Below, one piece after another: positions 3,826-37,159 of a stretch of DNA of 64,000 bases. Position 1 is the stretch's first letter; each line of letters opens with the position of its first letter. The stretch comes from an uncultured Bacteroidales bacterium (lineage in GTDB: Bacteria > Bacteroidota > Bacteroidia > Bacteroidales > UBA1402), in NCBI GenBank assembly GCA_964502355.1, contig CAZCWK010000002.1:64683-128682 (forward strand), read 5' to 3'. The position numbers and the translations under genes were made by a program. A model generated the notes under the pieces. The model searched no databases and was not told the DNA's origin. It saw only the letters and a program-made list of their open reading frames with translations.

Positions 3826-3847
3826 AGAATTATTTTTTTATTAAAAA

Positions 3848-3865: not shown

Positions 3866-3887
3866 GTATTAATTATTGAGAATTTTT

Positions 3888-7358: not shown

Positions 7359-7393
7359 AATGTTATAATTTAGTATCATATCTATTTATTCAA

Positions 7394-8590: not shown

Positions 8591-8612
8591 ATGATTTATA
8601 ACTTTACTAATA

Positions 8613-10616: not shown

Positions 10617-10628
10617 GATTAGTAATGA

Positions 10629-13811: not shown

Positions 13812-14079
13812 TAAATATTTGATTTAAGTACTCAATAATAATTTTAATTAAAATCTAAAGTTTATAACTTTATTAAGTTCTATTGTACATATTCCCCGCC
13901 CTATGGCATCAGGAAGAATAAATACATTTTTGGTTGCTACTTAAGTTTCTGAATTTCTCATTATAAGTTTTTTTAAATTTTGATTATGTAAAGTAATTTC
14001 CGGTGAATTAAAAATGAGATTAAAAAGAGATTAATCGGAATATCAATCTTTTTAATCCGAAGCATTTTTAATCATCTTT

Positions 14080-17656: not shown

Positions 17657-17709
17657 TAATTATAAAATACCGGACAGACCATCACAAATGGTGCCGGATT
17701 CTTCTTTTA

Positions 17710-18810
17710 TTATTTACTATCAAGACAATTCAGCGCAAAAGCATAAGCACCCAGAGCAATAGCTTTACTTGCTCCAAGCCTGGAAATCGCAACACCTATA
17801 CGTTTTGAGCAATCATAAAAGGCTTTTTTATCACTACCTGGTATATCAACATACTGAGAGCTGGTTTCCAGGAACTTGTCTAATTGATCTTTATCGTCCA
17901 GATTTAACGCCTTCATCTGTAATCTGCTAAAAACCTCCCCATTTAATCTTCCGATAGTTCCGTTCAATTCAGACATCAAAGCAGGCATTAAATATTTTGA
18001 AGCTCCGGTAAGTCCTCCACCGATTACAACAAGTCCATCAATAACAGTAATAGCATGAGCTATAGTATCACCTGCTTCTTCACCTAATTCATTAAAAGTT
18101 TTTAATGCAGCAGCTTTATTACCTGATCTTGTTCCTTCCGCAATATCAAAAATATTTTTTGGGGATAAATCATTATCCAAAGCACCGGAAAGCTCAGCAT
18201 ATATCCTCTTAATTGCGCCAATGCCCACGCTCTCTTCAGTAATACAATCTCTGTATTTTTTATGTCTGAATACCCAAACATCTCCGCCACAACCATTATC
18301 GCCCATATGAAGTTTACCATTTGTAACAACTCCGGCACCAAATCCGCTTCCAATAGTCACACCCAGCAGGTTTTTATACTGTTTCGGATTCCCTGCCTCT
18401 TTAAGTTTGCTGTTAATTTCAGGCAAAATACCACCAATAGCTTCACCATAAGCAAAAAGATCACCATCATTATTGATGAAAACAGGTATCCCGAATTTTT
18501 CTTTCAGAAACGGACCCAGGGCAATTCCACCTCTGAACGCCTTTAGATTAGGTAAATCACCGATAATGCCGTTTTTGTAATCAGCTGGGCCGGGGAAAGC
18601 AAAACTTATTGCAACCGGAGGCTCTTTTAAAGCTTCTTTGACTTTTGTAAAACCTTGGAGCAGACTCTCCAGACATTTAGTTAAATCATCCGCATTTGAA
18701 GCCAGACAAATGGGTTCAACTATTTCCTTGTTAGCCTGCATTGCAGAAAAAACGAAGTTTGTCCCACCTGCATCGAGCGTCATAACTATTCTTTTATCAC
18801 TTTGATACAT
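17710..18810 (-). CDS. ROK-family sugar kinase
   Basis: N-terminal LDAGGTNFVFSA ATPase motif plus GVTIGSGFGAGVV; 366 aa. Confidence 0.8.
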   Translation of the reverse strand: MYQSDKRIVMTLDAGGTNFVFSAMQANKEIVEPICLASNADDLTKCLESLLQGFTKVKEALKEPPVAISFAFPGPADYKNGIIGDLPNLKAFRGGIALGPFLKEKFGIPVFINNDGDLFAYGEAIGGILPEINSKLKEAGNPKQYKNLLGVTIGSGFGAGVVTNGKLHMGDNGCGGDVWVFRHKKYRDCITEESVGIGAIKRIYAELSGALDNDLSPKNIFDIAEGTRSGNKAAALKTFNELGEEAGDTIAHAITVIDGLVVIGGGLTGASKYLMPALMSELNGTIGRLNGEVFSRLQMKALNLDDKDQLDKFLETSSQYVDIPGSDKKAFYDCSKRIGVAISRLGASKAIALGAYAFALNCLDSK

Positions 18811-18818
18811 ATAGAAAA

Positions 18819-21261: not shown

Positions 21262-21289
21262 AAGGTGCCCCGAATTATTGGGACACCTT
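21262..21289 (-). terminator. Rho-independent terminator at the distal end of PUL2 / the DUF3795 fragment
   Basis: On the minus strand aaggtgtccc / ggggcacctt form a 10-bp stem (one G-U pair) with an 8-nt loop, followed by cattttattatttc. Confidence 0.6.
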
Positions 21290-21417: not shown

Positions 21418-22098
21418 CTAGTCTTTTAGTAATTTTAAAATTGATGAGCACATTGTTTCAATAATGATTGAACATGAAGCTGCACCTGCATCTATATGGC
21501 CTATTGTTCGTTCACCAAGTCTGGAAGAACGTCCGATTTTAGATAACATATTTCTGGTTGATTCTTTCCCTTTCTGTGCACCAATAGAACATTCATTCAG
21601 AACTATATCAAAAGGTTTTTTATTAACTATTGCATCATTTATATAGTTGAGAGCGCTAGACAAAGTATCGATTAACGATTTGTCACCTGGTTTAGCATTA
21701 CCCATTTCCATAACTTTCTTTGTGGCTTCAAAAATCATTTTTTGGAAAATATCTGATGTAATTATTACTTCATTTTTTGAAACTTTAGCCATTGTCTTGA
21801 AGAATGTTCCGTATAATGGGCCCATAGATCCACCAATTTCATCCATAAGCGTTTCTCCAACGATTTCTAATGAATCGGAAAAATTAAATTTATTTGATTC
21901 CAGTTGATTTAATGACATTAAAAAGCCTTTATTCATATTAACTCCATGATCTCCATCACCGATTATTCCATCTAAATCACATAAATAATCTTTATTCTGA
22001 ATAACTGCATTAGCAATATCTTGTACTATAATTAATCCTGATGTATTTAAGAAAAATGCTTTCATATGGTTTTTATAATTGTTTATAACAAACTGCAT
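21418..22098 (-). CDS. dhaL: Dihydroxyacetone-kinase family, L (ADP/ATP-binding, Dak2) subunit
   Basis: DGIIGDGDHGVNMNKGF is the Dak2 signature. An alternative start MKAFFLNTSG at 22065 would remove the 26-nt overlap with dhaK. Confidence 0.85.
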   Translation of the reverse strand: MQFVINNYKNHMKAFFLNTSGLIIVQDIANAVIQNKDYLCDLDGIIGDGDHGVNMNKGFLMSLNQLESNKFNFSDSLEIVGETLMDEIGGSMGPLYGTFFKTMAKVSKNEVIITSDIFQKMIFEATKKVMEMGNAKPGDKSLIDTLSSALNYINDAIVNKKPFDIVLNECSIGAQKGKESTRNMLSKIGRSSRLGERTIGHIDAGAASCSIIIETMCSSILKLLKD

Positions 22099-23071
22099 CT
22101 GCTGGGAAATCTATTAATGTTTTCAATTCTTCATCTACTTTCATTAATGTAAGAGTTACACCCATCATATCCAGAGAAGTGAAATAATTTCCAACAAGTG
22201 ATTTGTACATTTTAATTTTATTTTTTTCAAGAATTTTCGAAACTTCATTAAAGAAAACATAGAGTTCCATAACAGGTGTAGAACCCAATCCTGATACTAA
22301 AACTACAACTTCATCATTTTCTACAAAAGGGAGATCGGGCAACAATATTGAAATGCAGTACTCAGCCATTTCTTTTGCACTTTTCAGTTCTGATATCTTA
22401 ATGCCTGGTTCGCCATGATGGCCAATTCCAATTTCCATTTTACCGGGAGCAATCGAAAAATTTGGTTTACCAGCTGAAATTATTGTGCATGGAGATAATC
22501 CAATGCCAACACTTCTCGTATTGTCAATGGCTTTTTGTGAAACAATAATTACCTCATCCAGCGTTGCACCTGAAGCAGCCTTAGCTCCTCCAACTTTCCA
22601 CATAAGCACTTCTCCTGCCACTCCGCGACGTTTATATAATTCATTTTTGGGCGCAGAAGCCACATCATCATTTGCTATTACTTTTTTTACTGTAATTCCA
22701 ACTTCTTCTGCTTTTTCAATAGCCATTCGGACATTCATATTGTCTCCTGAATAATTACCGTATAAACATGCTACACCTTCTCCTGAATCTGCTGACCTAA
22801 AAGCTTCCAGAAATGCTTTTGCTGAAGGAGAACTGAATATTTCTCCGACAGCAACTGCATCACACATATTTTTTCCAATGTAACCGATAAATGCCGGTTT
22901 ATGTCCTGAGCCTCCACCAGTAACAATACCTACTTTCCCTTTTTTAGGAGCTTGTTTATATTTTAGTACTCTTGGATTTGAGGTTAAACTGACAATATTA
23001 TCATTGTTTTTTACAAATCCCTCAAGCATCTCATCTACAATTTTATCAGGATCATTATAAATTCTTTGCAT
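22073..23071 (-). CDS. dhaK: Dihydroxyacetone-kinase family, K (substrate-binding, Dak1) subunit
   Basis: 332 aa. GIVTGGGSGHKPAF matches the Dak1 GGGSGHEP-type motif. It lies directly upstream of dhaL. Confidence 0.88.
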   Translation of the reverse strand: MQRIYNDPDKIVDEMLEGFVKNNDNIVSLTSNPRVLKYKQAPKKGKVGIVTGGGSGHKPAFIGYIGKNMCDAVAVGEIFSSPSAKAFLEAFRSADSGEGVACLYGNYSGDNMNVRMAIEKAEEVGITVKKVIANDDVASAPKNELYKRRGVAGEVLMWKVGGAKAASGATLDEVIIVSQKAIDNTRSVGIGLSPCTIISAGKPNFSIAPGKMEIGIGHHGEPGIKISELKSAKEMAEYCISILLPDLPFVENDEVVVLVSGLGSTPVMELYVFFNEVSKILEKNKIKMYKSLVGNYFTSLDMMGVTLTLMKVDEELKTLIDFPADAVCYKQL

Positions 23072-23088
23072 CTTTTATTTGTATTTTA

Positions 23089-23466
23089 TTATTCGGAAAA
23101 AGAAATATCTTCATAAAATAAGTAATCTTCCAATTTTACTGGAGAAGTGAAATAACAGATCAATTTCAAATCAGAATCACCAGTGTTTTTTACCATGTGA
23201 ATTGAATTTTGAGGGAAAATAATAACTGATCCCATACTTATTCTAGATGTTTCATTGTCAATCATAACCTTCCCTTCTCCGGAAACTACATATACAACTT
23301 CTTCATCATTTGGGTGAGAATGAGCAGGTTTTACTGTTTCACCACTATGAATCAGGACTGTATTTAGAGAGAATTTATTAGAATAATTACTATCCGGATG
23401 GACAAGCCATTTAAGATCTCTTCCCGGGAGTTTTATGTATTTAATTTCAGATTCGTTAATTACCAT
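23089..23466 (-). CDS. Cupin-domain protein
   Basis: 125 aa with cupin motifs PAHSHPNDEEVVYVVSGEG and IIFPQNSIHMVKNTG. Confidence 0.75.
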   Translation of the reverse strand: MVINESEIKYIKLPGRDLKWLVHPDSNYSNKFSLNTVLIHSGETVKPAHSHPNDEEVVYVVSGEGKVMIDNETSRISMGSVIIFPQNSIHMVKNTGDSDLKLICYFTSPVKLEDYLFYEDISFSE

Positions 23467-23471
23467 AATTT

Positions 23472-24494
23472 TTAATATTTTATTTCATAAAGACTAACTT
23501 CATTTTTGTTTTGATTAGAACTGACAAGGTAGTCTCTGTTATCAATTTTGAAACTAATAATTTGAGTGGGACCAGCATCTTCTTCAATTATAATTTTATC
23601 AAATGTCCATGATTTAAAATTAAAATTGCGAAAAGCAAGTAATTCTTTTTTACCACGACGGTTCCCAACAAAAACAACAGGTTCTTTCCTAATATAATTT
23701 GTAGTTAATCCATGCCCAAATTCAAGTTCAGTTTCAAAAATTCTATCCCAAAAACCATGAATATTTTTATAAATAGCCAACGTATTGCCATGAAAAGGTT
23801 CGATAGTAACTATTTCATTATTGCCATCACCATCAACATCTATTAACGCAACTTCACTAATTTCTGATGATAGCATTTTTTCAACTTTCCATCCTTTTTT
23901 AGTTGAATTCCAGTTGATGCGGAATAGACCTTCAGCAGCAGAAACAAATAAAGTATCTATCCCAGCATAACTTATTTTTGTCATTCCGTGATTTCTAGTC
24001 AAGTTTTCAATAATTGGTTTTGTAATCCATTTTTCAAAACATTCATTTGTTGATACTTCATACAAAGCTCCCGGATTAGACCAGTCAAGTGGATTCTCTT
24101 TATATTTACTTATACTTGCAATAAATAAAACAAGATGATCATCTATATTCATCCATTCTATTCGATGTGCAAATGGGATATCCAAAATTTTATAATCTTT
24201 ATATGACTCACTTACTCTTTCGTGATAATAGACTCCAGCATTATAACCAATAAATGGAGGATAAACACCCATAATAGAGATAAGATCATCTTTTTTATTC
24301 GGTACATCATGTATGCTCATTGTCCCTCCGGGACCTTCAGCGAATTTTCTAGGTACAAAATCCGGTAAGCTTAATAAATAACACGGTCCATGTCCTTCAC
24401 TTCCAGCTGCTATCATTTTTGATTCATCTACATTTACTAAGGATATGGCATATCCTTTATCAATACTAAATGAATTTACTTTCTTGAAAATCAT
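23472..24494 (-). CDS. Cytoplasmic hypothetical protein, beta-propeller-like with an FG-GAP/VCBS-like DxDxDG motif
   Basis: 340 aa with no signal peptide. Contains IDVDGDGNNEIVTIEPFHGN. The stop overlaps the rpiB-like start (shared base 24494). Confidence 0.6.
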   Translation of the reverse strand: MIFKKVNSFSIDKGYAISLVNVDESKMIAAGSEGHGPCYLLSLPDFVPRKFAEGPGGTMSIHDVPNKKDDLISIMGVYPPFIGYNAGVYYHERVSESYKDYKILDIPFAHRIEWMNIDDHLVLFIASISKYKENPLDWSNPGALYEVSTNECFEKWITKPIIENLTRNHGMTKISYAGIDTLFVSAAEGLFRINWNSTKKGWKVEKMLSSEISEVALIDVDGDGNNEIVTIEPFHGNTLAIYKNIHGFWDRIFETELEFGHGLTTNYIRKEPVVFVGNRRGKKELLAFRNFNFKSWTFDKIIIEEDAGPTQIISFKIDNRDYLVSSNQNKNEVSLYEIKY

Positions 24495-24958
24495 TACTCA
24501 TTTTTCTTTATATGTTTTTCTTCGAACTGCTTAATCCTATCAATTTTTTCATCAGAACGTCCACCTGGTTGATATTCATAGCTCAACCATTTCGTTATAA
24601 TAGTTTTTGCTAACTCTATTCCCACTACTTGTGATCCTAATGTCAGGATATTAGCATTATTACTTTTAATTGACCTTTCAACAGAATATGAATCAGTACA
24701 ATTTACAGCTCTTGCTCCCAGTACTTTATTGGCAGCCAAGCATACACCTATACCGGTACCACAAAACAATAAACCTCGGTCAAAACTGTGATTTGAGACT
24801 GCCTCTGCAACTGAAAAGGCAGTATTTGCATAAATAGGATCATCATTTCCAAAATCTTTTATATCATAATTTAACGTTTCAAGATATTTTATTATCTCTT
24901 TCTTGAGTTCTTTTGCATTCGGATCGCAACCAATAGCAATCTTATAATTTTTGTACAT
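24494..24958 (-). CDS. RpiB/LacA/LacB-family sugar-phosphate isomerase
   Basis: 154 aa. IAIGCDPNAKELKKEI and LFCGTGIGVCLAANKVLGARA are typical of the RpiB family. Confidence 0.85.
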   Translation of the reverse strand: MYKNYKIAIGCDPNAKELKKEIIKYLETLNYDIKDFGNDDPIYANTAFSVAEAVSNHSFDRGLLFCGTGIGVCLAANKVLGARAVNCTDSYSVERSIKSNNANILTLGSQVVGIELAKTIITKWLSYEYQPGGRSDEKIDRIKQFEEKHIKKNE

Positions 24959-24976
24959 ATTTATTTATAATTATAG

Positions 24977-25657
24977 TTATTCAGATATTTCCAGTAACTT
25001 TCTAACCATTTCAATACCGGTTCTCCCACTATTAAAAACCGGTATTTTAACATTTTTCAGTGCAGGTTCAAGCGCACTCATCGATACTTGAGCTAATACG
25101 ATTGAGGAAACACTTTTTGATAGACTATCAATCACATCAATTAAAATTGAATTATGTTTTTCCACATCTCCTTTTTTTAATACTTCAAATGCTTCGGAAC
25201 ATAAGACAGTTGTAATTTCAATTTCTTTTCCTGCTTCATGAGCTGCTAATTTTAATAAACGTTCTGAAGCAGGCACTGTAGTTGGTACTGTTGCAAGTAA
25301 CCCTATCTTTCTGCCACAACTTACTGCCAGATCCATCATCGGTCTGTCTATTTGCAACATTGGTATGTTGATCATCGGTCTTGCATTTTCCACTGCTTTA
25401 TTAAAAGTTGAGCAAGCTAATAATATCAAATCAACTCCATAATTCTCCAGATTATGTGCATATTGAGCAAACTTTAGATAGTTTTCCTTTGGAATTATAC
25501 CTGGTTCACAGTTAAAATTGGTATTCTGGATAGTATCATCAACAATGTGTACAACCTTTACTTCAGGCATAATTTCATCAATAAATTGTTGTACTCCTTT
25601 AGTTGAAATAAGAGCAGCGTGAATAATTCCTACTGTTTTATTTTTAAGATCTTTCAT
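24977..25657 (-). CDS. Asp/Glu/hydantoin-racemase-superfamily protein
   Basis: 226 aa. DLILLACSTFN is a first-site Cys motif. GLLATVPTTV and IVLAQVSMSAL lie where the second motif is expected. Confidence 0.6.
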   Translation of the reverse strand: MKDLKNKTVGIIHAALISTKGVQQFIDEIMPEVKVVHIVDDTIQNTNFNCEPGIIPKENYLKFAQYAHNLENYGVDLILLACSTFNKAVENARPMINIPMLQIDRPMMDLAVSCGRKIGLLATVPTTVPASERLLKLAAHEAGKEIEITTVLCSEAFEVLKKGDVEKHNSILIDVIDSLSKSVSSIVLAQVSMSALEPALKNVKIPVFNSGRTGIEMVRKLLEISE

Positions 25658-25668
25658 TTTTAATTCTT

Positions 25669-26949
25669 TTAATTGTCAACATATTCCTGAAGCCTTTTAT
25701 CTTTTGTAAGTGGCCCCATAAAAAGCATTATTATTAAACCTATTATTGCGGCTACACCAAAAATTAAGAATATTGTATTATATGCAAATACATATCCGTG
25801 TACTGCTTTAACAGTTTTGATTGTTAATCCGGAAACAGTTTGGAAAATAGCGCCTCCAATCCCTGTACCAATGCATGCGAGTCCCCATACTGTAGCCGTA
25901 GCACTTGAAGGAACCACATCAGCAGGCATAGCCAAAGCGTTTGCAGTATATGATGTATATCCAAAACCTACAATACCAAAAATTATAATTGCAGTTATTG
26001 GTGAATGTATTGTAAATGGGGCTGCAATAAGAGGTATTGCCATAAGGCATGCGGAAATACATACCGAAACCAGTCTTGCTTTAGGTATTGGTACACCTCT
26101 CTTAATAATATATTGTGTAAAATAACCACCTGCAATATTACCAATATCGGCAACTATGAACGGTAGCATTGCATACCATCCAATCTGTTTCATACTCAGG
26201 GAGTGTACATCTACGAGATATCTTCCGATCCAGAATGTAACAAAATACCAGACCGGATCCAGAAAAATTTTAGACAAAGTGAACATTAATACAAATCTGT
26301 TCTTAAAAAGTTCGTTTGGCGGTATTATCTTTTGTTTTATATCATTAATCGATTTTTCAGGCGTATAATAGCTAAACCAGAAAGCGACTAACCATAAATA
26401 TCCAAGAATGGCAAGAATTACAAAAGTCATTTTCCATCCGTAATTCAAACCAAGAAATGCGACTAAGGGAGGAACAATAATTGCACCTAAAGCTGAACCA
26501 CTATTAAAAATTCCTGAAGCAGTAGAGCGTTCATTTGGTGGAAACCATTCTCTTACAAGCTTTATCCCTGCAGGCCAGTTTCCAGCTTCACCAATCCCAA
26601 GAAAAAATCTGACTATTCCAAATTGTAATGGCGTAATAACAAATGCATGAAATAAGCCTGCAGTTGTCCAGAAAGCCATAACCAAAGAATACCCGATTTT
26701 TGTCCCGAGTTTATCAATTATATAACCAGAACCAGCATTTGAAATAGTATAAGCAATAAAAAAGGCTGTACCAATATATCCAAATGCTTCATCTGATAGA
26801 ATTTGTCTTAATTCTCCATCAGAACTCAGGTAATTAAATGATAACCTATGTACGTAATTAAGGAGTGTGGCTAAAAATCCGAATGAAATCATTAGCCACC
26901 TCATTCTTAATTGCTTGTCAACATTTTTATTTTCTATTTTAAAAACCAT
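25669..26949 (-). CDS. MFS transporter, ACS / hexuronate-transporter-like
   Basis: 426 aa with 12 TM helices. N-terminal RMRWLMISFGFLATLLNYVHRLSF resembles ExuT/ACS-family openings. Confidence 0.8.
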   Translation of the reverse strand: MVFKIENKNVDKQLRMRWLMISFGFLATLLNYVHRLSFNYLSSDGELRQILSDEAFGYIGTAFFIAYTISNAGSGYIIDKLGTKIGYSLVMAFWTTAGLFHAFVITPLQFGIVRFFLGIGEAGNWPAGIKLVREWFPPNERSTASGIFNSGSALGAIIVPPLVAFLGLNYGWKMTFVILAILGYLWLVAFWFSYYTPEKSINDIKQKIIPPNELFKNRFVLMFTLSKIFLDPVWYFVTFWIGRYLVDVHSLSMKQIGWYAMLPFIVADIGNIAGGYFTQYIIKRGVPIPKARLVSVCISACLMAIPLIAAPFTIHSPITAIIIFGIVGFGYTSYTANALAMPADVVPSSATATVWGLACIGTGIGGAIFQTVSGLTIKTVKAVHGYVFAYNTIFLIFGVAAIIGLIIMLFMGPLTKDKRLQEYVDN

Positions 26950-27023
26950 TTTGACAGTATTATAGTATACTCACAAAAAAGTAATTATTGTGAGACACAT
27001 TTTTTATAATATTTTTGAATTTT

Positions 27024-28754
27024 TTACCAGGTAATCTCGATAAATGAGACTCCCTGCCTTGGAAGATTAAAACAGACTTCCTGTTTTCCATTCTTGGTAT
27101 CAATCCATTTCGGAGAATTTAATAACTGGAGTTGACCGGCTTTCTCGAGTTTATTTATTTGTTCTATTGATGGTTTTTGAGGTGAACCCATTTCTTTCCA
27201 TAACGTGTATGAGTTACTGTGGTTCTGATCAATTCTGTAATGAGTTAGTAAAACTTTGTCTGAAGGAATCTGACTAATATTTAATCTTACTGGTGAATCA
27301 GGTACATTGATATCGTTTATATCATGATAATTCCAAACTATAATTGTTGCTGAATTTCCACCTGATGATGCAATTGCATTAATGTCTGGAAAAGAATCTT
27401 TTACTCCATTATCACGAACCTTAATAAAGTTATATGCCAAATTGTCTTGGCGTACTTCGACTTTATCATCTTTCATAAGTCCAAACATTCTGAAAACATT
27501 TAATACCGGTTTGTCAACACCATTTGTTGACATATCTCTGAAACCGGCAAACCATTGTTGATCTTCAAATTCAAAACCCCAGGTCACTGCGCCCTTTAAA
27601 TTAACCCCCCAAAATTCAGCTAATTCATATATTCTTGCATAGGAAGCAGCCGTATAACTGGAATACATAGTCCCATTACGATAGGCATTACTTGGATAAT
27701 CTGCCTCAGAGCAAGCTGCACATCCTTCAGGATCGCACTCGCCAATTATTATCGGAAGATGCTTTATAGTAGGATATGATGCAATAACCTCAAAGCCTTT
27801 GCTAACATCACGTAGTTGCCTACTTATATTCATTTGAACAACACCATTAATAACTTTGGGATCTCCTTTTGCATGAAAAGTAATGAAATCCAATGGTGAT
27901 CCTTTTTTGCCTGTAGCATAATTTTTACCTGATACAACATGGTCAAGGAAGTTTCGTAAAAACGCTTCAGCTTTTTCTCCGGCAGGTCCTGTTGATTCAG
28001 GTCCTCCAATCATAGCAGTCGGTAAAGCTCTTTTTACAGCATCAGCTGAATAATCATATAATTTATGATATTCTTCTGCTGTACCACGCCAATATCCAAT
28101 ATTTGGTTCGTTCCAAACTTCCCAATACCAACTTTCAACCTCTTCTTTCCCGTATCTTTTTACAGAGTGTAATACCCAATTATAAATCAAGTCCGCCCAT
28201 TTTTTATAGTTATTTGGAGGATATGACCATCCGGTATATATATCATTATATTTTGCGCCTGGTTTCCAGAAGTGTTTGTATGGATCAGGATTTGTCGACA
28301 AAGCCTCTGGCATAAATCCAATTTGTGCTATTGGCTTCATCCCTCTTTCAATAAAGGAATCAAAAATACGATCGATGATATCCCAGTTATAAATCGGATT
28401 TCCTTTTTTATCTTCGGTATATACATTTGTAGATCCCCATTTTAATGATGCGGTACCATCACCTGTGACCAATAAACTATGAACCCTTACGTAAACAGGA
28501 ACCGGACTTAAATCAGACAATTCAGACAATAGCTTTAATCCATCTTTCATGTATGTGTAATTAGGTTCGTCATATCCCCAGAAAGACCAGATCTTATCCA
28601 GTGGTCCCAATTTTTTGTTTAAGTCTACATTTATTGTGATTGGATCATTGTAACTTGTATTATTGTTTTCTGCCATACTCTGTTCACAATAAGTAATAGC
28701 AATAAAAAACATTATCAGAAAAAATCTATTAAAAAAAGGATATATATAATTCAT
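27024..28754 (-). CDS. Glycoside hydrolase, GH39-like (clan GH-A)
   Basis: 576 aa with an N-terminal hydrophobic signal. WYWEVWNEPNIGYW is the acid/base NEP motif and LPIIIGECD holds the candidate nucleophile Glu. Confidence 0.7.
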   Translation of the reverse strand: MNYIYPFFNRFFLIMFFIAITYCEQSMAENNNTSYNDPITINVDLNKKLGPLDKIWSFWGYDEPNYTYMKDGLKLLSELSDLSPVPVYVRVHSLLVTGDGTASLKWGSTNVYTEDKKGNPIYNWDIIDRIFDSFIERGMKPIAQIGFMPEALSTNPDPYKHFWKPGAKYNDIYTGWSYPPNNYKKWADLIYNWVLHSVKRYGKEEVESWYWEVWNEPNIGYWRGTAEEYHKLYDYSADAVKRALPTAMIGGPESTGPAGEKAEAFLRNFLDHVVSGKNYATGKKGSPLDFITFHAKGDPKVINGVVQMNISRQLRDVSKGFEVIASYPTIKHLPIIIGECDPEGCAACSEADYPSNAYRNGTMYSSYTAASYARIYELAEFWGVNLKGAVTWGFEFEDQQWFAGFRDMSTNGVDKPVLNVFRMFGLMKDDKVEVRQDNLAYNFIKVRDNGVKDSFPDINAIASSGGNSATIIVWNYHDINDINVPDSPVRLNISQIPSDKVLLTHYRIDQNHSNSYTLWKEMGSPQKPSIEQINKLEKAGQLQLLNSPKWIDTKNGKQEVCFNLPRQGVSFIEITW

Positions 28755-28946
28755 AAAAAAAATTTAATATGTATTAAAAAACAACATAATATTAACTCAG
28801 CAACCCTCAATATATCAACTAATACCTGTTGGTTAACCTATTTAAATGAGATCTGAGTTTGGATACAGCAAAGTTGGTATCAAAATCAGAACAAATTCAG
28901 ATATATTTCAGGCTGCTGAGTATTTTATTTCAATAATACCGGATAA

Positions 28947-30503
28947 TCAATACCCGGATAACTGGTGGAGATTTTTGTTATTTGAAACTTCGTCTGATGG
29001 AATTGGTTGACGTTGAGATACTCCGACAACAAAATTATTAAAATCCGGATCTCTGACTTTTAAAGTTTCAAGTTCCGCTGGATCATTATAGAGTTCCCAT
29101 CTTTTTATATCAAACCATCTTACACATTCGCCATTAAGTTCCAAAACGCGTTCAATTCTTAATCGTTTAGCAAATAGTGTTTTATCATTTCCTATTTCGG
29201 GATAAGCTGTAGCTAAAGGCCTCATTCCAACTCTTGCTCTGACTCTGTCTACATATGGATATGCTTCATTAGTTTTGCCAAGCTCATTTAGACATTCAGC
29301 ATACATTAACAAAACATCTGAGAAACGGATTATTCTGAAATTTATCGGGCAATTTCTATCTTCAACTAAAGACGTTTGATCTCTTGAGTATTTTCTATAG
29401 TAAACATCATTATCCCATGCGCTCTGCCATGTTTTACCATAAAACTTACCTGATTCTTCATTTGGAAAATCTTTCAGAATATTTTTATAAATCAAACTAA
29501 TCCTTAATCGAGGATCAAGTTTCCCGTCAGCTGTTTTTTCTTTATAGTATTCATCTCGAATCCAGCTTCTGGCTACTCCATCTCTGAATCCAACGCCTTT
29601 CAAACCAAAAATAATTGATCTCTGATGACCATTTGTAGCACCTTTAGAGTCACTTTCTCCTCCTATCAAATTACCCGCAAATTGGATTTCAAAAACAGAC
29701 TCAATGTTATTTTCTTTGGCTTCAGAGAAATTATCCGAATAATTACTTACCAGACCATAATACTTTTTACCTTCTCCTTCAATAAGCCAATTTAATTGAT
29801 CCTTAGCTTGGCTCCACTTATGTTGTTGCATGTAAACACGAGCCAACTGAGCTTTGGCTGCACCTTTTGTTATTCTTCCCTTCTCGGCACCTGTCCATTC
29901 TTCAGGCAATAAATCAATAGCTTTTAAAAGATCATTCTCAGCTAAATCCCATACTTCCTGGAGTGATCCTTGTATAGGTTGATCAGCAGGTTGTTGGATT
30001 TTTGTGACAAGAGGAACTTCTTCCCATAAGATTGCTAAATGGAAATAATTATAAGCTCTAAGGAAATAAGCCTGTCCAAGATAAGAATTCTTTTTATCAT
30101 CAGACATTTCTATATTTGGCACATAAGTAAGTACTTGATTAGCGCGGAATATTTGTCTATAAGCTTCTCTCCAAATCCAGCAATTATTTTCATTATGATT
30201 ATAATCATTGTAAATAAACTTAGTCCATGCACTGGTGTTAACCATAGGGCTCAAACTATATCCTTCATCAGACAACAAATCAAAACGCCAATGTAAATAA
30301 CGGTGCCAGGAACCTGTTCTGTAAAATATTGCATAACAGGCATTAACGCCGGCTTTAGCATCTGATTCAGTTTTCCAAAACATATCAGAAGATAAGTTAT
30401 TGGGATTGGTAACGTCTAAAAAGTCTTCTTTGCAAGATGTAAGTGAATACCCTAATAGACAAATTATTAATATATAAAGTATATTTTTCATAATAACATT
30501 CAT
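28947..30503 (-). CDS. SusD/RagB-family lipoprotein
   Basis: 518 aa, lipobox SLTSCKEDFLDV. FSDVLLMYAECLNELG and ERVLELNGECVRWFDIKRW are SusD signatures. Confidence 0.92.
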   Translation of the reverse strand: MNVIMKNILYILIICLLGYSLTSCKEDFLDVTNPNNLSSDMFWKTESDAKAGVNACYAIFYRTGSWHRYLHWRFDLLSDEGYSLSPMVNTSAWTKFIYNDYNHNENNCWIWREAYRQIFRANQVLTYVPNIEMSDDKKNSYLGQAYFLRAYNYFHLAILWEEVPLVTKIQQPADQPIQGSLQEVWDLAENDLLKAIDLLPEEWTGAEKGRITKGAAKAQLARVYMQQHKWSQAKDQLNWLIEGEGKKYYGLVSNYSDNFSEAKENNIESVFEIQFAGNLIGGESDSKGATNGHQRSIIFGLKGVGFRDGVARSWIRDEYYKEKTADGKLDPRLRISLIYKNILKDFPNEESGKFYGKTWQSAWDNDVYYRKYSRDQTSLVEDRNCPINFRIIRFSDVLLMYAECLNELGKTNEAYPYVDRVRARVGMRPLATAYPEIGNDKTLFAKRLRIERVLELNGECVRWFDIKRWELYNDPAELETLKVRDPDFNNFVVGVSQRQPIPSDEVSNNKNLHQLSGY

Positions 30504-30506: not shown

Positions 30507-33500
30507 TTAGATTTCTATTTGAATACCGACATTAACTGCTTTTGGATTTGGATAAGCATCTATTCCTCGATTATTCCTGTTCCAAATATTATCTTTTCTA
30601 TACTCAGGATCTCCCATGCTAAATTTCGTTAAGGTGATAAGATTCTGCCCATTAACATACATTCTGCAGGAATTGACTCCAATTTTATTTAGCAAGGATT
30701 TGGGTATATTATAACCAATTGAAAGTGACTTTAATTTTAAATAACTACCATCCTCAAGCCAGTATTCACTATCTCTGCTATTTTGTTTTGTTCCGATAAC
30801 TGGTCTGGGATTTTTAGATGAATTATTTTCAGGTGTCCAATAATTAGTACTGAAACCTTTAATAAAACCAGAATCCGAACCGGAATCCAAACCAATCATA
30901 TATCTTCTAAGTGAATTAAAAATATCACAACCAAAATCACCAAACCAATTCATTTTTACATCAAAGTTATTCCATGAAATACCGGCATTAAATCCTGCCA
31001 AAAATAATGATTCAGCGTTGCCAACTATCTGACGGTCAGCGTCAGTAATTTTACCATCATCATTATAATCGACATACTTTATGTCTCCTGGTTTTGCAGT
31101 TGGTTGAATTACTGTACCGTTTGAATTTACATATGATTGTACATCCTCATCACTTTGGAAAAGACCATCTGTCCTGATTAAAAAGAATTCTGAAACAGGA
31201 CGTCCAACAGCAGTTCTGGCTTGGTTGACAATTATAGCATCTCGGCCGTAGCCTAACCCTGTAACTTTATTTCTCATAATATTAACATTAAAGTTGGTAA
31301 AATATGAGAATTTTTCTTTGCTGTCTCTCCAACCAACTGATATTTCCAAACCGCTGTTTTTTAAAGATGCAGCATTTACGATTGGATCACCTGCTCCATT
31401 TCCTGTAGTCAATAAAATTGGCATTGAGACCAGAATATCATTAGTGTTGGAAATGTAATAATCAATGTTTGAAGTTAACCTATTATCCAAAAACGACATA
31501 TCTAAACCGAAATTTGTCTGTGTCTGACTTTCCCACTTAATATCTTCATTTGTCAGATTAGTTTGAATCGAAGCTTGTTGTTGTTTTTGATCCGTACCAA
31601 ATGTTGCAGTAAGGTTTGTATTAATCAATGGAAGATAATCGTAATAACCTATATTCAAATTTCCCAAAGTCCCATGACTTGCTCTTAGTTTTAAATCGGA
31701 TATCCAGTGCAAATCTTCCATAAACTTCTCTTTTTGGATTCTCCATGCTCCTGAGAATGAAGGGAAATACCCCCATCTGTTTTCTTTCTTAACTCTTGAA
31801 GATGCATCAGCTCTAAGTGTTAATGATAATAAATACTTATCATCATAAGTATAGTTTGCACGTCCAAGATAAGAAAGCATCGCGCCAATATTTGCATAAC
31901 CACCAACTACTGCATTATCTGTTCCAGCTCCAAGTACTTCGTAGTACTTACCACTATCGGTCCTTAGAATGTTGTAGATTTTTCCATTTATGGTTTCATA
32001 ATTTTCTTTCTGGAATGTTTGACCTAGTACTGCATTTATCGAATGCTTACCAAATGTATTTATATAAGATAGAGTGTTTTCAACAAGTGGGCTATCAAAT
32101 CTTCCTCTTGATTCATACAAACTTGAAGGTTCATAAGCCATATTCATACGCCAATCTCCTTCTTTTCTAAGAGTTTTCTGTCCATCAAAATTAAGAGTAT
32201 ACCCTGTGTTTAACTTATATGTCAGACTCTTTAGTATTTTTAGTTCTGCCCATAGTCCGACCATTATTCTGAAATTTGTATTAATTGTCTTGTTAAGGTT
32301 CTCAACCGCGATAGGATTTTCTCCAATGCAGTTGTTTGTGTTCGGATCTCCAAATCCATAACCCCCGACATGGTTTTCATCATAAACCGGAATTAGTGGG
32401 CACATACCCAACCCTAAACCACTTGAATTGGGATCAACAACATTATTACTCATATTTAATGTCTGGCCGTAACTTAGTATTCCTCGAACTCCACTTGTAT
32501 TAACTCTAAAATTAAACCTATCATATTCTGTACCGTAGTAAATACCTTTGTTTTTAAAATATTCGCCCGAAACATAATATTTCCCTGTATTGGAACCACC
32601 GGATACACTCAGATTATATTGTTGAATACTACCATTGTTCATTACTTCATCTATCCAATCGGTGTCTACACCTGAATTGTATGTTAAAGGTGATAAACCG
32701 GCATTCTCACGACCAATTTTGTTTAAAAGAATGTACTCTTCAGCATTGGCAAGTTTGATAGGAGGAGTTCCGTCCTGAATTGTATATGAAGAAGAAAAAT
32801 TTATACGCATAGGTCCTTCACTACCACTTTTAGTTGTGATGACAATAACGCCATTCGCTGCTCGAGAACCATAAATGGCTGCAGCAGAAGCGTCTTTTAG
32901 TATTTGAATAGATTCGATATCAAGAGAATTAATATCTCTTATATTTGTTGTCAGGATTCCGTCAATAACATAAAGTGGCGTAACACTCGTGAAATTATTT
33001 ATTCCACGTATAGTCGCGAAACCGGTATCTCCAGGTCGACCGTTCATATTAATCTCAACTCCAGGGATTGAGCCACTAATAGATTCAAGTATTGAAGTTG
33101 TTGGTGCATTACTTAAAGTTTTTGTATTTACTACAGAAACAGCACCAGTAAGATCTTTCTTTTTTAGCGTACCATAGCCGACAACTACCACAGCATCCAA
33201 ACTTTGAACATCTTCTTCAAGAACAATTTTTAATGGATGTCTATCAGAAACTTTGATTTCCTTTTTAATATACCCAAGATAACTAATCTGCAAAACGTTG
33301 TTTACCTCGGCATTGATTATAAACTTACCGTTTTCATCAGTAAAAGCACCTTTTTTAGTACCTTGAATTGATATATTTGCTCCAATTACCGGATTATTGG
33401 ACTCATCGGTGACCATACCCGATACTTGTCCAGTTTGTTGTGTAGGTTGTTGTTTTTCAGGAGAAATACTCCCTTTACTTAAGATAATTTTTTGATCAGA

Positions 33501-33824
33501 AAATTTAGATTCAATATTTTTACCTTTAAAAACTATTGCTAATGCATCAAAAATTGTTTTGTCCTGAAATTTGACAGTAACTTTTTCATTTACATTAACG
33601 ATACTATTGTCATAGATGAATGTATAAAGAGTCTGCTTTTCTATTTCGTTTAAAATATCACTAATGGAAGTGTTTGTTACGTTAAGAGTAACTTTTGCCT
33701 GTCCTTTTTTTGTATTGTTTTGTGCATGTGAAGCGTTTGTAAAAACAAAACATAAACTCACTAACAATGTTACAAGTAACAGGGATTTTCTTGATGATTT
33801 TTTTTTAATTAAATTTTTATTCAT
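30507..33824 (-). CDS. SusC-family TonB-dependent transducer with an N-terminal STN signalling domain
   Basis: 1105 aa. STN region VTLNVTNTSISDILNEIEKQTLYTFIYDNS, then a carboxypeptidase-regulatory-like domain, plug (ILKDASAAAIYGSRAANGVIVITTK) and barrel. It is paired with FecR and an ECF sigma. Confidence 0.95.
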   Translation of the reverse strand: MNKNLIKKKSSRKSLLLVTLLVSLCFVFTNASHAQNNTKKGQAKVTLNVTNTSISDILNEIEKQTLYTFIYDNSIVNVNEKVTVKFQDKTIFDALAIVFKGKNIESKFSDQKIILSKGSISPEKQQPTQQTGQVSGMVTDESNNPVIGANISIQGTKKGAFTDENGKFIINAEVNNVLQISYLGYIKKEIKVSDRHPLKIVLEEDVQSLDAVVVVGYGTLKKKDLTGAVSVVNTKTLSNAPTTSILESISGSIPGVEINMNGRPGDTGFATIRGINNFTSVTPLYVIDGILTTNIRDINSLDIESIQILKDASAAAIYGSRAANGVIVITTKSGSEGPMRINFSSSYTIQDGTPPIKLANAEEYILLNKIGRENAGLSPLTYNSGVDTDWIDEVMNNGSIQQYNLSVSGGSNTGKYYVSGEYFKNKGIYYGTEYDRFNFRVNTSGVRGILSYGQTLNMSNNVVDPNSSGLGLGMCPLIPVYDENHVGGYGFGDPNTNNCIGENPIAVENLNKTINTNFRIMVGLWAELKILKSLTYKLNTGYTLNFDGQKTLRKEGDWRMNMAYEPSSLYESRGRFDSPLVENTLSYINTFGKHSINAVLGQTFQKENYETINGKIYNILRTDSGKYYEVLGAGTDNAVVGGYANIGAMLSYLGRANYTYDDKYLLSLTLRADASSRVKKENRWGYFPSFSGAWRIQKEKFMEDLHWISDLKLRASHGTLGNLNIGYYDYLPLINTNLTATFGTDQKQQQASIQTNLTNEDIKWESQTQTNFGLDMSFLDNRLTSNIDYYISNTNDILVSMPILLTTGNGAGDPIVNAASLKNSGLEISVGWRDSKEKFSYFTNFNVNIMRNKVTGLGYGRDAIIVNQARTAVGRPVSEFFLIRTDGLFQSDEDVQSYVNSNGTVIQPTAKPGDIKYVDYNDDGKITDADRQIVGNAESLFLAGFNAGISWNNFDVKMNWFGDFGCDIFNSLRRYMIGLDSGSDSGFIKGFSTNYWTPENNSSKNPRPVIGTKQNSRDSEYWLEDGSYLKLKSLSIGYNIPKSLLNKIGVNSCRMYVNGQNLITLTKFSMGDPEYRKDNIWNRNNRGIDAYPNPKAVNVGIQIEI

Positions 33825-33993: not shown

Positions 33994-35022
33994 TTAGTGT
34001 TTGAAAACATTTATACATTTATTTTGTTGTCCATTTGATAAATCTGTTTTATATTCAATAAAATCCAGACCTGATGCAATCTCAAGGCATTCCAATATTT
34101 GTGGTAATTGCTCATTTGTAAACTTTCCAGTAATTCTCGAGTTCAAAACATCGCTATCTTTGACACAAAATGTCACATTGAATTGACGGCTTAAGACATC
34201 AATAACGTGTTGCATATCGTGTTTATTAAATAATATTTCCCCGTTAATCCATGCAATATCATATTTTGGGTTAACATTGGAAATTTTTAAATTATCATCG
34301 TCATTTTTATTATAAACAGCTTTTTGACAAGGCTTTAACAATCTGCTAAAAACTGTTTTATCATCTTTAGTCAAATTAATTCTTACAGATCCCTTTATTA
34401 ATGTCGTCTCTATCTCGTCATCACTCTGATATGCCAGTACTCCAAACTTCGTACCCAAAACCTCAACATTATAATTATGAGCTGCTTTTACAATAAAAGG
34501 GTGTTTTTCGTTTCGAGTTACTTCAAAATATGCCTGACCATCAAGTTCAACCTCTCTGATTTTACCGGAAAATTTTGTAGGGTATTTTAGTTTACTGTTA
34601 GTGTTAAGCCACACTTTAGTCCCATCTGATAATGTGAAAGATGTAGTCATCCCCGGATTAGTGCTAATTGTAGCATATAGTGAAGGCTCATTTAAGTTAT
34701 TATGCAAAACAAATAAAGTGATTAATAATACAGGGAAAAATAAAATTGCAGCTACCTTTTGAAGTATACTAAAGTATTTTTTAATAGTGATACCTTTTTT
34801 TCTTCTTTTGATTTGGTCTTTGAATTCTAAAAATGATTTTTCCTGATCAAGCGAGTGTTTAAATTGAAGCACATTTACAGCTTTAATAGTAATATAAATG
34901 TCTTCAAGTCTTTTTTCATTATCAGGAGATTGTTTTCTCCATTCCTGAATCAAAGTAACTTCATCTTCAGTACTCGTACCTTCGATAAATCTTATAAGTA
35001 TTTCTTCTTCTACTTCAACCAT
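33994..35022 (-). CDS. FecR-family anti-sigma factor
   Basis: 342 aa with a single central TM helix (VAAILFFPVLLITLFVL). FecR-like periplasmic domain, and C-terminal DIAWINGEILFNKHDMQHVIDVLSRQFNV. Confidence 0.9.
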   Translation of the reverse strand: MVEVEEEILIRFIEGTSTEDEVTLIQEWRKQSPDNEKRLEDIYITIKAVNVLQFKHSLDQEKSFLEFKDQIKRRKKGITIKKYFSILQKVAAILFFPVLLITLFVLHNNLNEPSLYATISTNPGMTTSFTLSDGTKVWLNTNSKLKYPTKFSGKIREVELDGQAYFEVTRNEKHPFIVKAAHNYNVEVLGTKFGVLAYQSDDEIETTLIKGSVRINLTKDDKTVFSRLLKPCQKAVYNKNDDDNLKISNVNPKYDIAWINGEILFNKHDMQHVIDVLSRQFNVTFCVKDSDVLNSRITGKFTNEQLPQILECLEIASGLDFIEYKTDLSNGQQNKCINVFKH

Positions 35023-35156: not shown

Positions 35157-35714
35157 TTATAATAGTAATAACAGATACTCTTTGAGAGCCACTCTTAGTA
35201 TTTTGATTGCATTTGAAATGCGATAGGATATTGTTTTTGGCGAAACGCCAAGTATTTCAGCGATTTCATCATACTTCTTGCAATCATATCTGTTTAAAAC
35301 AAAAGCAGTACGATAATCTTCAGGCATATTGTTAACAGTGGTTTCAATTATATTCTGTAATTCATCAGAAATATAGAAATCAGGATTATCTAAGGGATTT
35401 TGATACTTATCAAATAGTTCTTGATGTACCCTGTTTTTTACTCCTTTTTGAGTAATTACATTCAGGCACTTATTTTTTACAACTGTAAACAGGAATGATT
35501 TTAACTGGTAATCAGGTATTAGCAAACGTCGGTTTTCCCACAACCACAACATAGTTTCCTGTACTATATTCTCACATTCTGATTCTTCGATATAATTTGA
35601 TGCAAAAGCACATAGTGGAGCATAATATTTCTTGAAAATGTACTCGAATGCATCTTCGTTACCTTCTCTGATAAGGCTAATTATATTAATGTCGTTATTA
35701 TCAAATTCCATCAC
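35157..35714 (-). CDS. ECF-type RNA polymerase sigma-70 family factor
   Basis: 185 aa. Region 2 (FEYIFKKYYAPLCAFASNYI, IVQETMLWLW) and region 4 HTH (YDEIAEILGVSPKTISYRISNAIKILR). Confidence 0.9.
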   Translation of the reverse strand: MMEFDNNDINIISLIREGNEDAFEYIFKKYYAPLCAFASNYIEESECENIVQETMLWLWENRRLLIPDYQLKSFLFTVVKNKCLNVITQKGVKNRVHQELFDKYQNPLDNPDFYISDELQNIIETTVNNMPEDYRTAFVLNRYDCKKYDEIAEILGVSPKTISYRISNAIKILRVALKEYLLLLL

Positions 35715-37078: not shown

Positions 37079-37159
37079 TTTATCAGATTAAGCAGAACTT
37101 TATTAATTAAGTAAAATATCATATAAATTGAAGTAAGTATTCATTAATAATATACAGAA

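Follow-up and report, generated by a model that had tools for sequence, protein, structure and literature searches.

This analysis concerns a glycan utilization locus in a 64,000-nucleotide stretch of DNA (64 kb; hereafter the window) from an uncultured Bacteroidales bacterium of the lineage UBA1402 (GenBank assembly GCA_964502355.1, contig CAZCWK010000002.1, positions 64,683 to 128,682). On the minus strand of the window, a SusC/SusD pair and a glycoside hydrolase of family 39 (GH39) are followed by seven closely spaced genes, one of which encodes a seven-bladed beta-propeller. We tentatively propose that these genes carry an imported acidic sugar to erythrose-4-phosphate, with the propeller as a decarboxylase. 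In the direction of transcription, the locus comprises the following features:

35157..35714, minus strand: extracytoplasmic function (ECF) sigma factor (Sigma70_r4_2, 5.7e-15; also Sigma70_r2 and Sigma70_ECF)
33994..35022, minus strand: FecR-type anti-sigma factor (FecR, 1.5e-18; FecR_C, 8.6e-13)
30507..33824, minus strand: SusC-like TonB-dependent transporter with an N-terminal STN signalling domain (STN PF07660, 5.6e-12; CarbopepD_reg_2; Plug)
28947..30503, minus strand: SusD-like glycan-binding lipoprotein (SusD_RagB, 1.8e-32; SusD-like_3, 1e-31)
27024..28754, minus strand: GH39 glycoside hydrolase (PF01229, 1.8e-52, 179 bits against a cutoff of 26; WNEPN)
25669..26949, minus strand: importer of the major facilitator superfamily (MFS), anion:cation symporter (ACS) type (MFS_1, 1.1e-45; TIGR00893, 1.2e-56, below cutoff)
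24977..25657, minus strand: Asp/Glu-racemase-fold protein (PF01177, Asp_Glu_race, 7.5e-18, 65.5 bits against a cutoff of 31)
24494..24958, minus strand: RpiB-family isomerase (PF02502, LacAB_rpiB, 8.3e-43)
23472..24494, minus strand: seven-bladed beta-propeller, 340 aa (AlphaFold2 model, predicted local distance difference test (pLDDT) 91.7)
23089..23466, minus strand: single-domain cupin (Cupin_2, 2.8e-17)
22073..23071, minus strand: DhaK (Dak1, 7.6e-112)
21418..22098, minus strand: DhaL (Dak2, 3.6e-44)
21262..21289, minus strand: hairpin resembling an intrinsic terminator (10-bp stem with six GC pairs, T-rich tail)

Profile searches of Pfam and NCBIfam confirmed each family assignment made in a preliminary description of this DNA, and the eight open reading frames (ORFs) from GH39 to DhaL have the coordinates reported there and lie on the minus strand. 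The SusC, SusD and GH39 genes are contiguous on one strand and thus form a polysaccharide utilization locus in the sense of a susC/susD pair with a carbohydrate-active enzyme (CAZyme). Trans-envelope control of the locus, also proposed in that description, is backed by profile matches to all three elements, namely the ECF sigma factor, the FecR/FecR_C anti-sigma factor and the STN domain on SusC. The GH39 enzyme combines the family profile with the NEP acid/base motif of clan GH-A (WNEPN in the translation) and has a signal peptide as well as an N-terminus resembling a lipobox; its closest solved relatives are bacterial beta-xylosidases (1px8, 6.5e-35), and alpha-L-iduronidase matches at 6e-12. 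The interval from GH39 to DhaL contains no dehydrogenase and no 2-keto-3-deoxygluconate (KDG) genes, as had been stated, and no aldolase gene either.

The intergenic gaps from GH39 to DhaL measure 74, 11, 18, -1, 5, 17 and -26 bp, two gene pairs thus overlapping (dhaK and dhaL by 26 bp), and the terminator-like hairpin lies about 130 bp past the DhaL stop codon, ahead of a GH92 gene. Because no gap exceeds 74 bp, genes overlap and a hairpin follows DhaL, it is plausible that the unit outlined earlier is a single operon ending at DhaL. The seven distal genes are indeed a conserved, co-oriented and tightly packed unit with SusC, SusD and GH39. A weaker terminator-like hairpin lies over the end of susD (28939-28957, minus strand); hairpins between susD and downstream genes are often seen, and this one could attenuate transcription into GH39 and the module.

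Starting from the window's propeller as the query, we collected 80 loci from species-representative genomes and 80 from metagenomes, and mapped the window proteins and recurrent neighbours onto them. For the locus statistics, dereplication at 95% identity and a requirement for at least 4.5 kb on each side left 67 loci. DhaK, DhaL and the RpiB-like gene each occur in 42 of these, a GarR-like beta-hydroxyacid dehydrogenase in 47, a GntP permease in 28 and the cupin in 15, with the racemase-fold gene present in 13 loci and each time together with the cupin. Dehydrogenase and cupin never share a locus (0/67), and 19 loci have the propeller and the dehydrogenase alone, with or without GntP. Members of Bacteroidota, Verrucomicrobiota and Spirochaetota carry the module, and its recurrence with the same genes at dozens of loci in these three phyla shows that the linkage is not due to chance.

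Two variants can be distinguished. Variant A, the type found in the window, comprises the racemase-fold, RpiB-like, propeller, cupin, DhaK and DhaL genes together with either an ACS-type MFS importer or a tripartite ATP-independent periplasmic (TRAP) transporter (DctPQM), and occurs in Bacteroides, Muribaculum, Rikenellaceae, Paludibacter, Verrucomicrobia and Opitutales. Variant B, very common among rumen and gut Bacteroidales, comprises the RpiB-like, DhaK, DhaL, GntP, propeller and dehydrogenase genes, often with a GH3 gene after it and a hybrid two-component regulator and SusC before it; its Spirochaete representatives add a short-chain dehydrogenase of the GolD/DthD (D-threitol dehydrogenase) family. 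Queries for the GarR-like dehydrogenase, GntP and TRAP proteins had no tblastn match anywhere in the window. In a Mariniphaga-type genome (L087 and L005, about 7050-11920), a GudD-like dehydratase and an aldo-keto reductase stand beside GntP, the propeller and the GarR-like dehydrogenase, an arrangement like that of the glucarate/galactarate gar operon with the propeller at the place of GarL.

Orthologues of the whole locus are present in Bacteroides oleiciplenus YIT 12058, three uncultured Bacteroides and one Muribaculum, with identities of 56-59% for SusC, 71-72% for SusD, 60-63% for GH39 and 39-52% for the sigma factor. The window SusC is 59% identical to that of L062, L063, L166 and L035, and its GH39 is 60-63% identical to that of the same four loci and L081; the ECF sigma factor is 50-52% identical to the one at the end of the B. 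oleiciplenus-type loci. All five orthologous loci have TRAP in place of MFS. The Bacteroides loci carry an extra GH3 and the Muribaculum locus has two GH39 genes, so that the single GH39 emphasized in the preliminary description holds for the window and not for its orthologues. More widely, the CAZymes flanking variant A vary by lineage (GH39 with or without GH3, GH31, GH127, GH43, GH4, sulfatases), and several glycans may carry the acid as a minor substituent. One variable flank, in L003, includes many sulfatases and a 751-aa gene call (12453-14708) that joins Dak2 (DhaL) to a GH43 catalytic domain and GH43_C2 as a putative fusion, in a locus that also contains a propeller-cupin fusion; in L085, GH127 genes lie on the flanks of the module.

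No Pfam or NCBIfam family matched the window propeller above threshold, and a sequence profile search of the PDB with it was empty. Its model has seven blades, the protein has no signal peptide, and Foldseek comparison of the model with the PDB returned non-enzyme propellers only (LGI1 EPTP, integrins and WD40 proteins). Every one of 308 close homologues is labelled "hypothetical", and the family amounts to 969 clusters at 50% identity. Eight residues (E33, H110, R111, D137, H169, H235, H261 and R279) are invariant in the variant A, variant B and ula-type clades alike, although overall identity is 25-30%; this fits a single chemistry, with a metal centre and carboxylate-binding arginines.

Three natural fusions involve the propeller, joining it to the cupin (P0081, 472 aa, cupin C-terminal), to the dehydrogenase (a single 636-aa ORF at 9965-11875 in three rumen Bacteroidales genomes, L041, L048 and L053) and to a HAD phosphatase of the Cof type, which precedes the propeller (P0201, 624 aa). 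The variant B dehydrogenase is about 60% identical to GarR (1VPD) and belongs to a superfamily, the beta-hydroxyacid dehydrogenases, that includes 6-phosphogluconate dehydrogenase and L-threonate dehydrogenase; a beta-keto acid is precisely what such an enzyme, fused or adjacent to the propeller, would deliver.

The operon of the HAD-propeller fusion also encodes a UlaG-like metallo-beta-lactamase, phosphotransferase system (PTS) components EIIA, EIIC-GAT and EIIB, a DeoR regulator, a UlaF-like epimerase of the class II aldolase fold and a UlaE-like PF01261 epimerase. In the ascorbate pathway of Escherichia coli, UlaD decarboxylates 3-keto-L-gulonate-6-phosphate to L-xylulose-5-phosphate. UlaD is absent from the ula-like operons that carry HAD and propeller, both where the two are fused (L170, 8001-9875; L171, 2475-4349) and where they are separate genes of an independent ula-like operon (L172, 5750-7663; L173, 2189-4102). 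The fusion in L170 and L171 occupies the expected ulaD position between the PTS genes and ulaF, with an FGGY kinase near it in L170, and another propeller relative comes after a PTS EIIB gene; L175 (743-1771) is also among the ula-like propeller loci. The HAD protein and the propeller are the sole catalysts without an assigned step in the UlaD-less operons. On the simplest reading, HAD dephosphorylates the substrate, the propeller decarboxylates free 3-keto-L-gulonate and a kinase rephosphorylates the product; alternatively, the phosphate ester is decarboxylated directly. The arrangement suggests an undescribed variant of ascorbate fermentation. A tblastn search of plasmids with the ula-type propeller gave zero matches.

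Because of these UlaD-less operons, the three fusions, the beta-hydroxyacid dehydrogenase partner and the invariant His, Glu and Arg residues, we put it at somewhat better than an even chance that the propeller is a decarboxylase of non-phosphorylated 3-keto sugar acids with a free 2-ketose as its product. Where the propeller, cupin and racemase-fold proteins were earlier thought to rearrange a sugar, the evidence favours a step that loses carbon, the decarboxylation of a 3-keto acid by the propeller.

The genes at the distal end of the locus point to the fate of such a ketose. Dak1 and Dak2 domains on adjacent genes constitute a two-subunit Dha kinase, and the closest solved relative of DhaK is the DhaK 3ct4 (2.3e-72). 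DhaL scores above its equivalog cutoff (TIGR02365, 160.4 against 138.3). The pair does not qualify as a true dihydroxyacetone kinase, with DhaK below its own cutoff (TIGR02363, 343 against 406) and no DhaM/PTS or glycerol dehydrogenase context: glycerol dehydrogenase occurs in none of the 42 DhaK-bearing loci, and both it and DhaM are absent from the window and related loci. DhaK is 63-75% identical in all module variants over three phyla, and in 41-42 of the 42 loci DhaKL goes together with the RpiB-like gene.

The RpiB-like protein falls under the rpiB equivalog cutoff (TIGR01120, 118.4 against 138.65) and also under that for DerI (NF051858, 142.5 against 240). Aligned with the RpiB proteins of E. 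coli (whose numbering is used here) and Clostridium thermocellum, all 53 module RpiB-likes keep Cys66 and have His10, His99 and His134 replaced, the last two by serine. As a reference for EryI we used one sequence, taken from Rhizobium pRL12, whose annotated erythritol locus has it after eryA, eryB, eryC and the TIM-like eryH. This single EryI has the same three histidine replacements as the RpiB-likes of both variants, which thus display the EryI active-site pattern of a residue other than His at position 10, Ser99, Ser134 and retained Cys66. His99 is the ring-opening residue of RpiB, and its loss fits an acyclic tetrose phosphate. From these residues we propose that the RpiB-like protein is a putative D-erythrulose-4-phosphate isomerase.

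The closest relatives of the window's module are in L084 (RpiB 72%, cupin 70%, DhaK 73%, DhaL 61% and propeller 51% identity), where they lie between three GH140 apiosidases and neighbour an apionate-lactonase homologue (NF049900, 288 bits, full length), a Gfo/Idh/MocA dehydrogenase, a Zn-dependent alcohol dehydrogenase and a PF01261 protein. The oxidative pathway for D-apiose reportedly has a beta-keto acid as an intermediate, whose decarboxylation gives L-erythrulose; a Dak-type kinase and an RpiB-type isomerase are said to act next, in turn, yielding erythrose-4-phosphate. The window has only the Dak and RpiB-like parts of that pathway, and an ApnL-like gene was found in L084 alone. Dak-family kinases phosphorylate free hydroxy-ketones. 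Because glycerol genes are not linked, the EryI signature is present and the closest relatives lie in an apiose cluster, we consider erythrulose roughly twice as probable a substrate of DhaKL as dihydroxyacetone. The idea that the Dha kinase and RpiB genes serve tetrulose metabolism is thereby largely upheld, on the strength of the histidine replacements and the apiose-cluster relatives, with decarboxylation as the step it had missed; against the alternative it named, DhaKL acting on dihydroxyacetone from glycerol, stands the absence of any linked glycerol genes.

Two proteins would act ahead of the propeller in the window's variant. The cupin has a complete HxH...E...H metal-binding motif and, because it replaces the dehydrogenase as the propeller's partner and fusion mate, should be a keto-acid or aldo-keto isomerase that supplies the propeller with a 3-keto acid without redox. 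The racemase-fold protein, 65-76% identical across phyla, has hydantoin racemase (2eq5) as its best solved relative. Across 25 orthologues the motif LACSTFN, which contains Cys82, never varies, and where the second catalytic cysteine would be there is always a Gln, within AQVSMSALEP. The protein thus has the fold and profile of the Asp/Glu/hydantoin racemases without their two catalytic cysteines, and because the second is lost it is probably not a true racemase; the racemase fold assigned initially stands by PF01177. It may be a one-base isomerase, an eliminase or a decarboxylase-type enzyme acting beside a carboxylate.

The importers bear on the nature of the substrate. The best NCBIfam match of the MFS protein is TIGR00893, the D-galactonate transporter/ACS subfamily, and it is 71-75% identical to the in-module MFS proteins of six other loci (L013, L043, L085, L086, L088 and L089). 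All three importer types of the module loci (ACS-type MFS, TRAP and GntP) are organic-acid carriers. The TRAP binding protein has 4N8Y, 4X8R and 7BBR as its closest solved relatives, whose ligands are galacturonate, glucuronate and 2-keto-3-deoxygluconate, respectively (PMC11668362). An anion importer is in range in 11 of the 13 racemase-fold loci, and the racemase-fold gene is absent from L084, the relative in a neutral-sugar cluster. Because the importers are all organic-acid carriers and the TRAP relatives bind uronates or KDG, we conclude that the module substrate is an organic anion. This agrees with the anionic-sugar importer of the preliminary description, a type that the orthologues exchange for a TRAP system near glucuronate, galacturonate and KDG binders; that GH39 itself releases the imported acid is not supported.

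Taken together, these features are consistent with the following pathway. SusC/SusD and the surface GH39 would capture and trim a glycan, from which an acidic sugar X would enter via the ACS-type MFS importer. The one-cysteine racemase-fold protein and the cupin are predicted to turn X into a 3-keto (beta-keto) sugar acid without redox, since they strictly alternate with the beta-hydroxyacid dehydrogenase of the sister variant. The propeller, as a metal-dependent enzyme with a His/Glu/Arg centre, would then decarboxylate the 3-keto acid, a step assigned to it because of the fusions and the UlaD-less ascorbate operons, and release a free 2-ketose one carbon shorter, most likely D-erythrulose. 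DhaK and DhaL would phosphorylate this ketose with ATP, and the RpiB-like protein, given its EryI/DerI signature, would convert erythrulose-4-phosphate to erythrose-4-phosphate, which enters the pentose-phosphate pathway. In the sister variant, that of rumen and gut Bacteroidales and Spirochaetes, GntP would stand for the MFS importer and the GarR-like dehydrogenase for the racemase-fold protein and cupin, oxidizing an aldonate to the 3-keto acid. We favour this scheme tentatively, at close to but still short of an even chance. The wider proposal is that the propeller is the first member of a large family, about 1000 clusters at 50% identity, whose proteins use a metal to decarboxylate 3-keto sugar acids that carry no phosphate, as non-homologous replacements of UlaD, OiaC and C11orf54, and that the locus is a new route by which bacteria of gut, rumen and sediment bring an acidic sugar from dietary or host glycans to erythrose-4-phosphate; we hold this to be possible, at odds somewhat below even, and the acidic sugar in question may be one whose catabolism is currently unknown.

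The model requires the imported acid to be as oxidized as a keto- or aldo-pentonic acid, and several observations weigh against it. Its main weakness is that we know of no glycan constituent that can be named as the required C5 keto- or aldo-acid. L-Iduronate, 4-O-methyl-glucuronate, aceric acid, Dha, penturonic acids and ascorbate- or erythroascorbate-type compounds are candidates considered by chemistry only, none of them established. The proteins related to the TRAP binding protein have C6 acids as ligands, and the variant B dehydrogenase passes the equivalog model for tartronate-semialdehyde reductase (441 bits against a cutoff of 397), which, with its identity of about 60% to GarR, favours that textbook role over the 3-oxidation of an aldonate. 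In 25 of the 67 loci, there is no complete DhaK and RpiB pair in range; the incomplete loci include 19 with propeller and dehydrogenase only, five partnerless ones and two that keep one gene. The RpiB-likes are 38-42% identical to EryI as against 42-44% to ordinary RpiB, so the EryI-type signature could be convergent or have another meaning, and those of variant B have also lost Arg133, which makes a phosphate-binding site less convincing. Near the HAD-propeller genes of L172 and L173 a kinase is absent; the propeller might act on a phosphorylated acid there, or HAD might have another role.

Several of these points are better accommodated if the propeller is an aldolase in a non-phosphorylative uronate route, an explanation that we favoured at first on account of the GarR-like partner and its fusion to the propeller. 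The RpiB-like protein, the cupin or both would convert an imported hexuronate to a 5-keto-aldonate, with the racemase-fold protein setting C5 (as for L-iduronate freed by an iduronidase-like GH39), and the propeller would cleave it to dihydroxyacetone and tartronate semialdehyde, from which DhaKL would make dihydroxyacetone phosphate and a GarR-type reductase D-glycerate. The two fragments add up to the formula of a hexuronate, DhaL passes its equivalog cutoff, the TRAP binding protein is nearest to glucuronate and galacturonate binders, and GH39 is the iduronidase family. The dehydrogenase that accompanies the propeller, and is fused to it in places, is the GarR equivalog noted above. In the Mariniphaga-type locus, the GudD-like enolase-superfamily dehydratase lies by GntP, propeller and reductase in a manner that mirrors garPLRK, and Spirochaete L079 adds a Zn-dependent alcohol dehydrogenase and an amidohydrolase_2 protein, a pairing that belongs to the module from L-galactose to tagaturonate. 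Measured against the garPLRK/gud and hyi-glxR systems, however, the module lacks GarL, Gcl, Hyi and GarK, and the reductase is missing from the entire window and from all 15 cupin-type loci. The RpiB-like protein would moreover be left without a role that explains its EryI-type signature, the D-apiose cluster would be unexplained, and UlaD, the enzyme that the propeller replaces in the ula-like operons, catalyses decarboxylation, not an aldol cleavage. Since the cupin variant never has the reductase, and in view of the EryI signature and the ula-like operons, we demoted the aldolase route, which we now judge unlikely.

The remaining explanations fare less well. The propeller and cupin might be counterparts of aldos-2-ulose dehydratase (AUDH) of Phanerochaete, dehydrating and then isomerizing a 2-keto sugar or sugar acid, with DhaKL and the RpiB-like protein taking a product that is not decarboxylated. 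Both proteins look like metal enzymes, the propeller-then-cupin order of P0081 is that of AUDH, and the window propeller matches PF22301 (AUDH_beta_propeller) weakly (E 0.001), a match that is precomputed for three homologues as well. Yet the score of 19.4 lies under the Pfam cutoff of 27, the 50 best Foldseek matches do not include AUDH, the module has no lectin domain and a different genomic logic, and no enzyme is present for a deoxy-diketo product; nor would a dehydratase account for the alternation with the dehydrogenase or the UlaD slot, and we find this explanation improbable. We rate at the same low level the possibility that the module is a pathway for D-apiose or a rhamnogalacturonan-II sugar and that the locus targets pectin bearing apiose or aceric acid. 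GH140 and the apionate-lactonase homologue around the closest relatives speak for it, another relative lies between two GH127 genes, and GH127, a family that includes an aceric-acid hydrolase, is represented at 44042-47092 in the window. GH140 is nevertheless absent from the window and from all the others of about 170 loci, the window and most variant A loci have an anion importer and a racemase-fold gene and no oxidative apiose genes, and the flanking CAZymes vary; on chemical reasoning only, aceric acid would give a 5-deoxy-pentulose, which an EryI-type isomerase could not use. Least credible, and in our view very improbable, is a housekeeping role in which DhaKL serves glycerol-derived dihydroxyacetone, RpiB serves the pentose-phosphate pathway and the other genes are chance neighbours. 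The domains do match the DhaK, DhaL and RpiB families, but glycerol dehydrogenase is never linked, the RpiB-like protein scores below the rpiB cutoff and has lost three histidines, the propeller occurs in three fusions, and gene order and overlaps are kept in three phyla, so that the synteny statistics contradict it.

If the decarboxylase pathway is preferred, its logic has known counterparts. Apionate degradation I and the erythritol and threitol pathways are said to employ OiaC, LerK/DerK and DerI/EryI, and NCBIfam models exist for the DerI and apionate-lactonase families (NF051858 and NF049900). As in those pathways, a beta-keto acid would lead to erythrulose, and a Dak-family kinase and an RpiB-family isomerase would then lead to erythrose-4-phosphate; the EryI histidine replacements recur in the module RpiB-likes, and one module relative lies in an apiose cluster. 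The module differs in the absence of ApnO, OiaC, OiaK, RLP and LerI homologues from the window, in the cupin and one-cysteine racemase-fold protein upstream, in its SusC/SusD setting and in its anion importer. Whereas the OiaC-type decarboxylase is a TIM barrel of the xylose-isomerase fold, the module's candidate is a beta-propeller, and whereas those pathways start from apiose or a tetritol, the module substrate would be an acid imported as such.

In animals, L-gulonate is converted to 3-keto-L-gulonate and then to L-xylulose. Both this route and the ascorbate system (ulaG, ulaABCDEF) resemble the proposed pathway in decarboxylating a 3-keto sugar acid to a 2-ketose, and the coupling of L-gulonate 3-dehydrogenase to a decarboxylase in animals parallels that of the beta-hydroxyacid dehydrogenase to the propeller in the sister variant. 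In contrast to the ascorbate system, the module has no PTS, lactonase or pentulose epimerases, DhaKL and the EryI-like protein imply a C4 rather than a C5 product, and the propeller is unrelated to UlaD (orotidine monophosphate decarboxylase fold) and has no Pfam match, including to the family of C11orf54, identified in 2025 as the human 3-keto-L-gulonate decarboxylase (PMC12337341). The pathways for L-threonate, D-erythronate and D-ribonate, with LtnD, OtnI, OtnK and OtnC, are also similar (Zhang et al. 2016; Luo & Huang 2018; via PMC12994016): a small acid becomes a 2-oxo and then a 3-oxo acid, which is decarboxylated to a triose or tetrulose derivative, and the first dehydrogenase is of the same superfamily as that of the sister variant. 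They use a DUF1537 kinase, a class II aldolase fold and PF01261, whereas the module would decarboxylate before phosphorylating and would use a Dak-type kinase, a propeller and a cupin.

The sequence from acid to beta-keto acid, decarboxylation and ketose phosphate is thus known from apionate, threonate/erythronate, ribonate and ascorbate. What we propose as new are the catalysts, a propeller, a cupin and a one-cysteine racemase fold, all non-homologous to known counterparts, as well as decarboxylation before phosphorylation, the pairing of a Dak kinase with an EryI-like isomerase in Bacteroidota and the integration with SusC/SusD under an ECF sigma factor. The propeller stands a fair chance of being the founder of a new enzyme family. 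Our literature search returned no description of the module, and the undescribed status claimed for it earlier stands; the nearest mention comes from a human arabinoxylan-oligosaccharide intervention study (PMC7781564), in which Dak1/Dak2 domains are enriched in the genomes of Bacteroides cellulosilyticus. If correct, the model would give a function to a conserved hypothetical family that hundreds of genomes from gut, rumen and the environment encode, bring a new fold to the decarboxylases of sugar acids, explain the UlaD-less ascorbate operons and define a catabolic module enriched in the B. cellulosilyticus group. The results point towards an acidic component of glycans that has no described fate in the gut, and with a cultured carrier in B. 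oleiciplenus YIT 12058 and a TRAP binding protein (L062, 13175-14242) suited to ligand screening the question is directly testable.

Some neighbouring features of the window were considered as members of the locus and set aside. The window GH3 (14080-16458) was rejected for its 36% identity to the GH3 of the orthologous loci and for its position past the terminator and the GH92-ROK-MFS unit. Divergent from the locus sigma factor are an HTH_3 and cupin regulator (183 aa) and a DUF4914 protein (646 aa; PF16260, 5.5e-287), together at 36527-39100 on the plus strand. The regulator (36527-37078) is 30% identical to a conserved HTH-cupin regulator that precedes the module in other variant A loci, and at that identity is no more than a possible regulator of the module. 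A sigma-70 promoter scan gave 83 sites against 77 expected and is uninformative for Bacteroidota.

A second SusC/SusD locus occupies 1726-21119 on the minus strand, with SusC at 10629-13811, SusD at 8613-10616, DUF4959/DUF5000 and DUF4998 proteins, a GH92 at 3888-6008 and a protein with a type IX secretion system tail; upstream of these lies a unit of GH92, ROK kinase, MFS and GH3 (14080-21119). This locus probably targets mannosides and is separate from the GH39 locus. The GH127-family protein at 44042-47092 (plus strand, 1016 aa) carries Laminin_G_3 and Big_4 domains. Finally, a 346-aa ORF at 59402-60442 on the minus strand is matched by two domains, the N-terminal and the middle one, of the acyl-acid amido synthetases known as plant-type GH3 (Gretchen Hagen 3), a family for which it is seemingly short.

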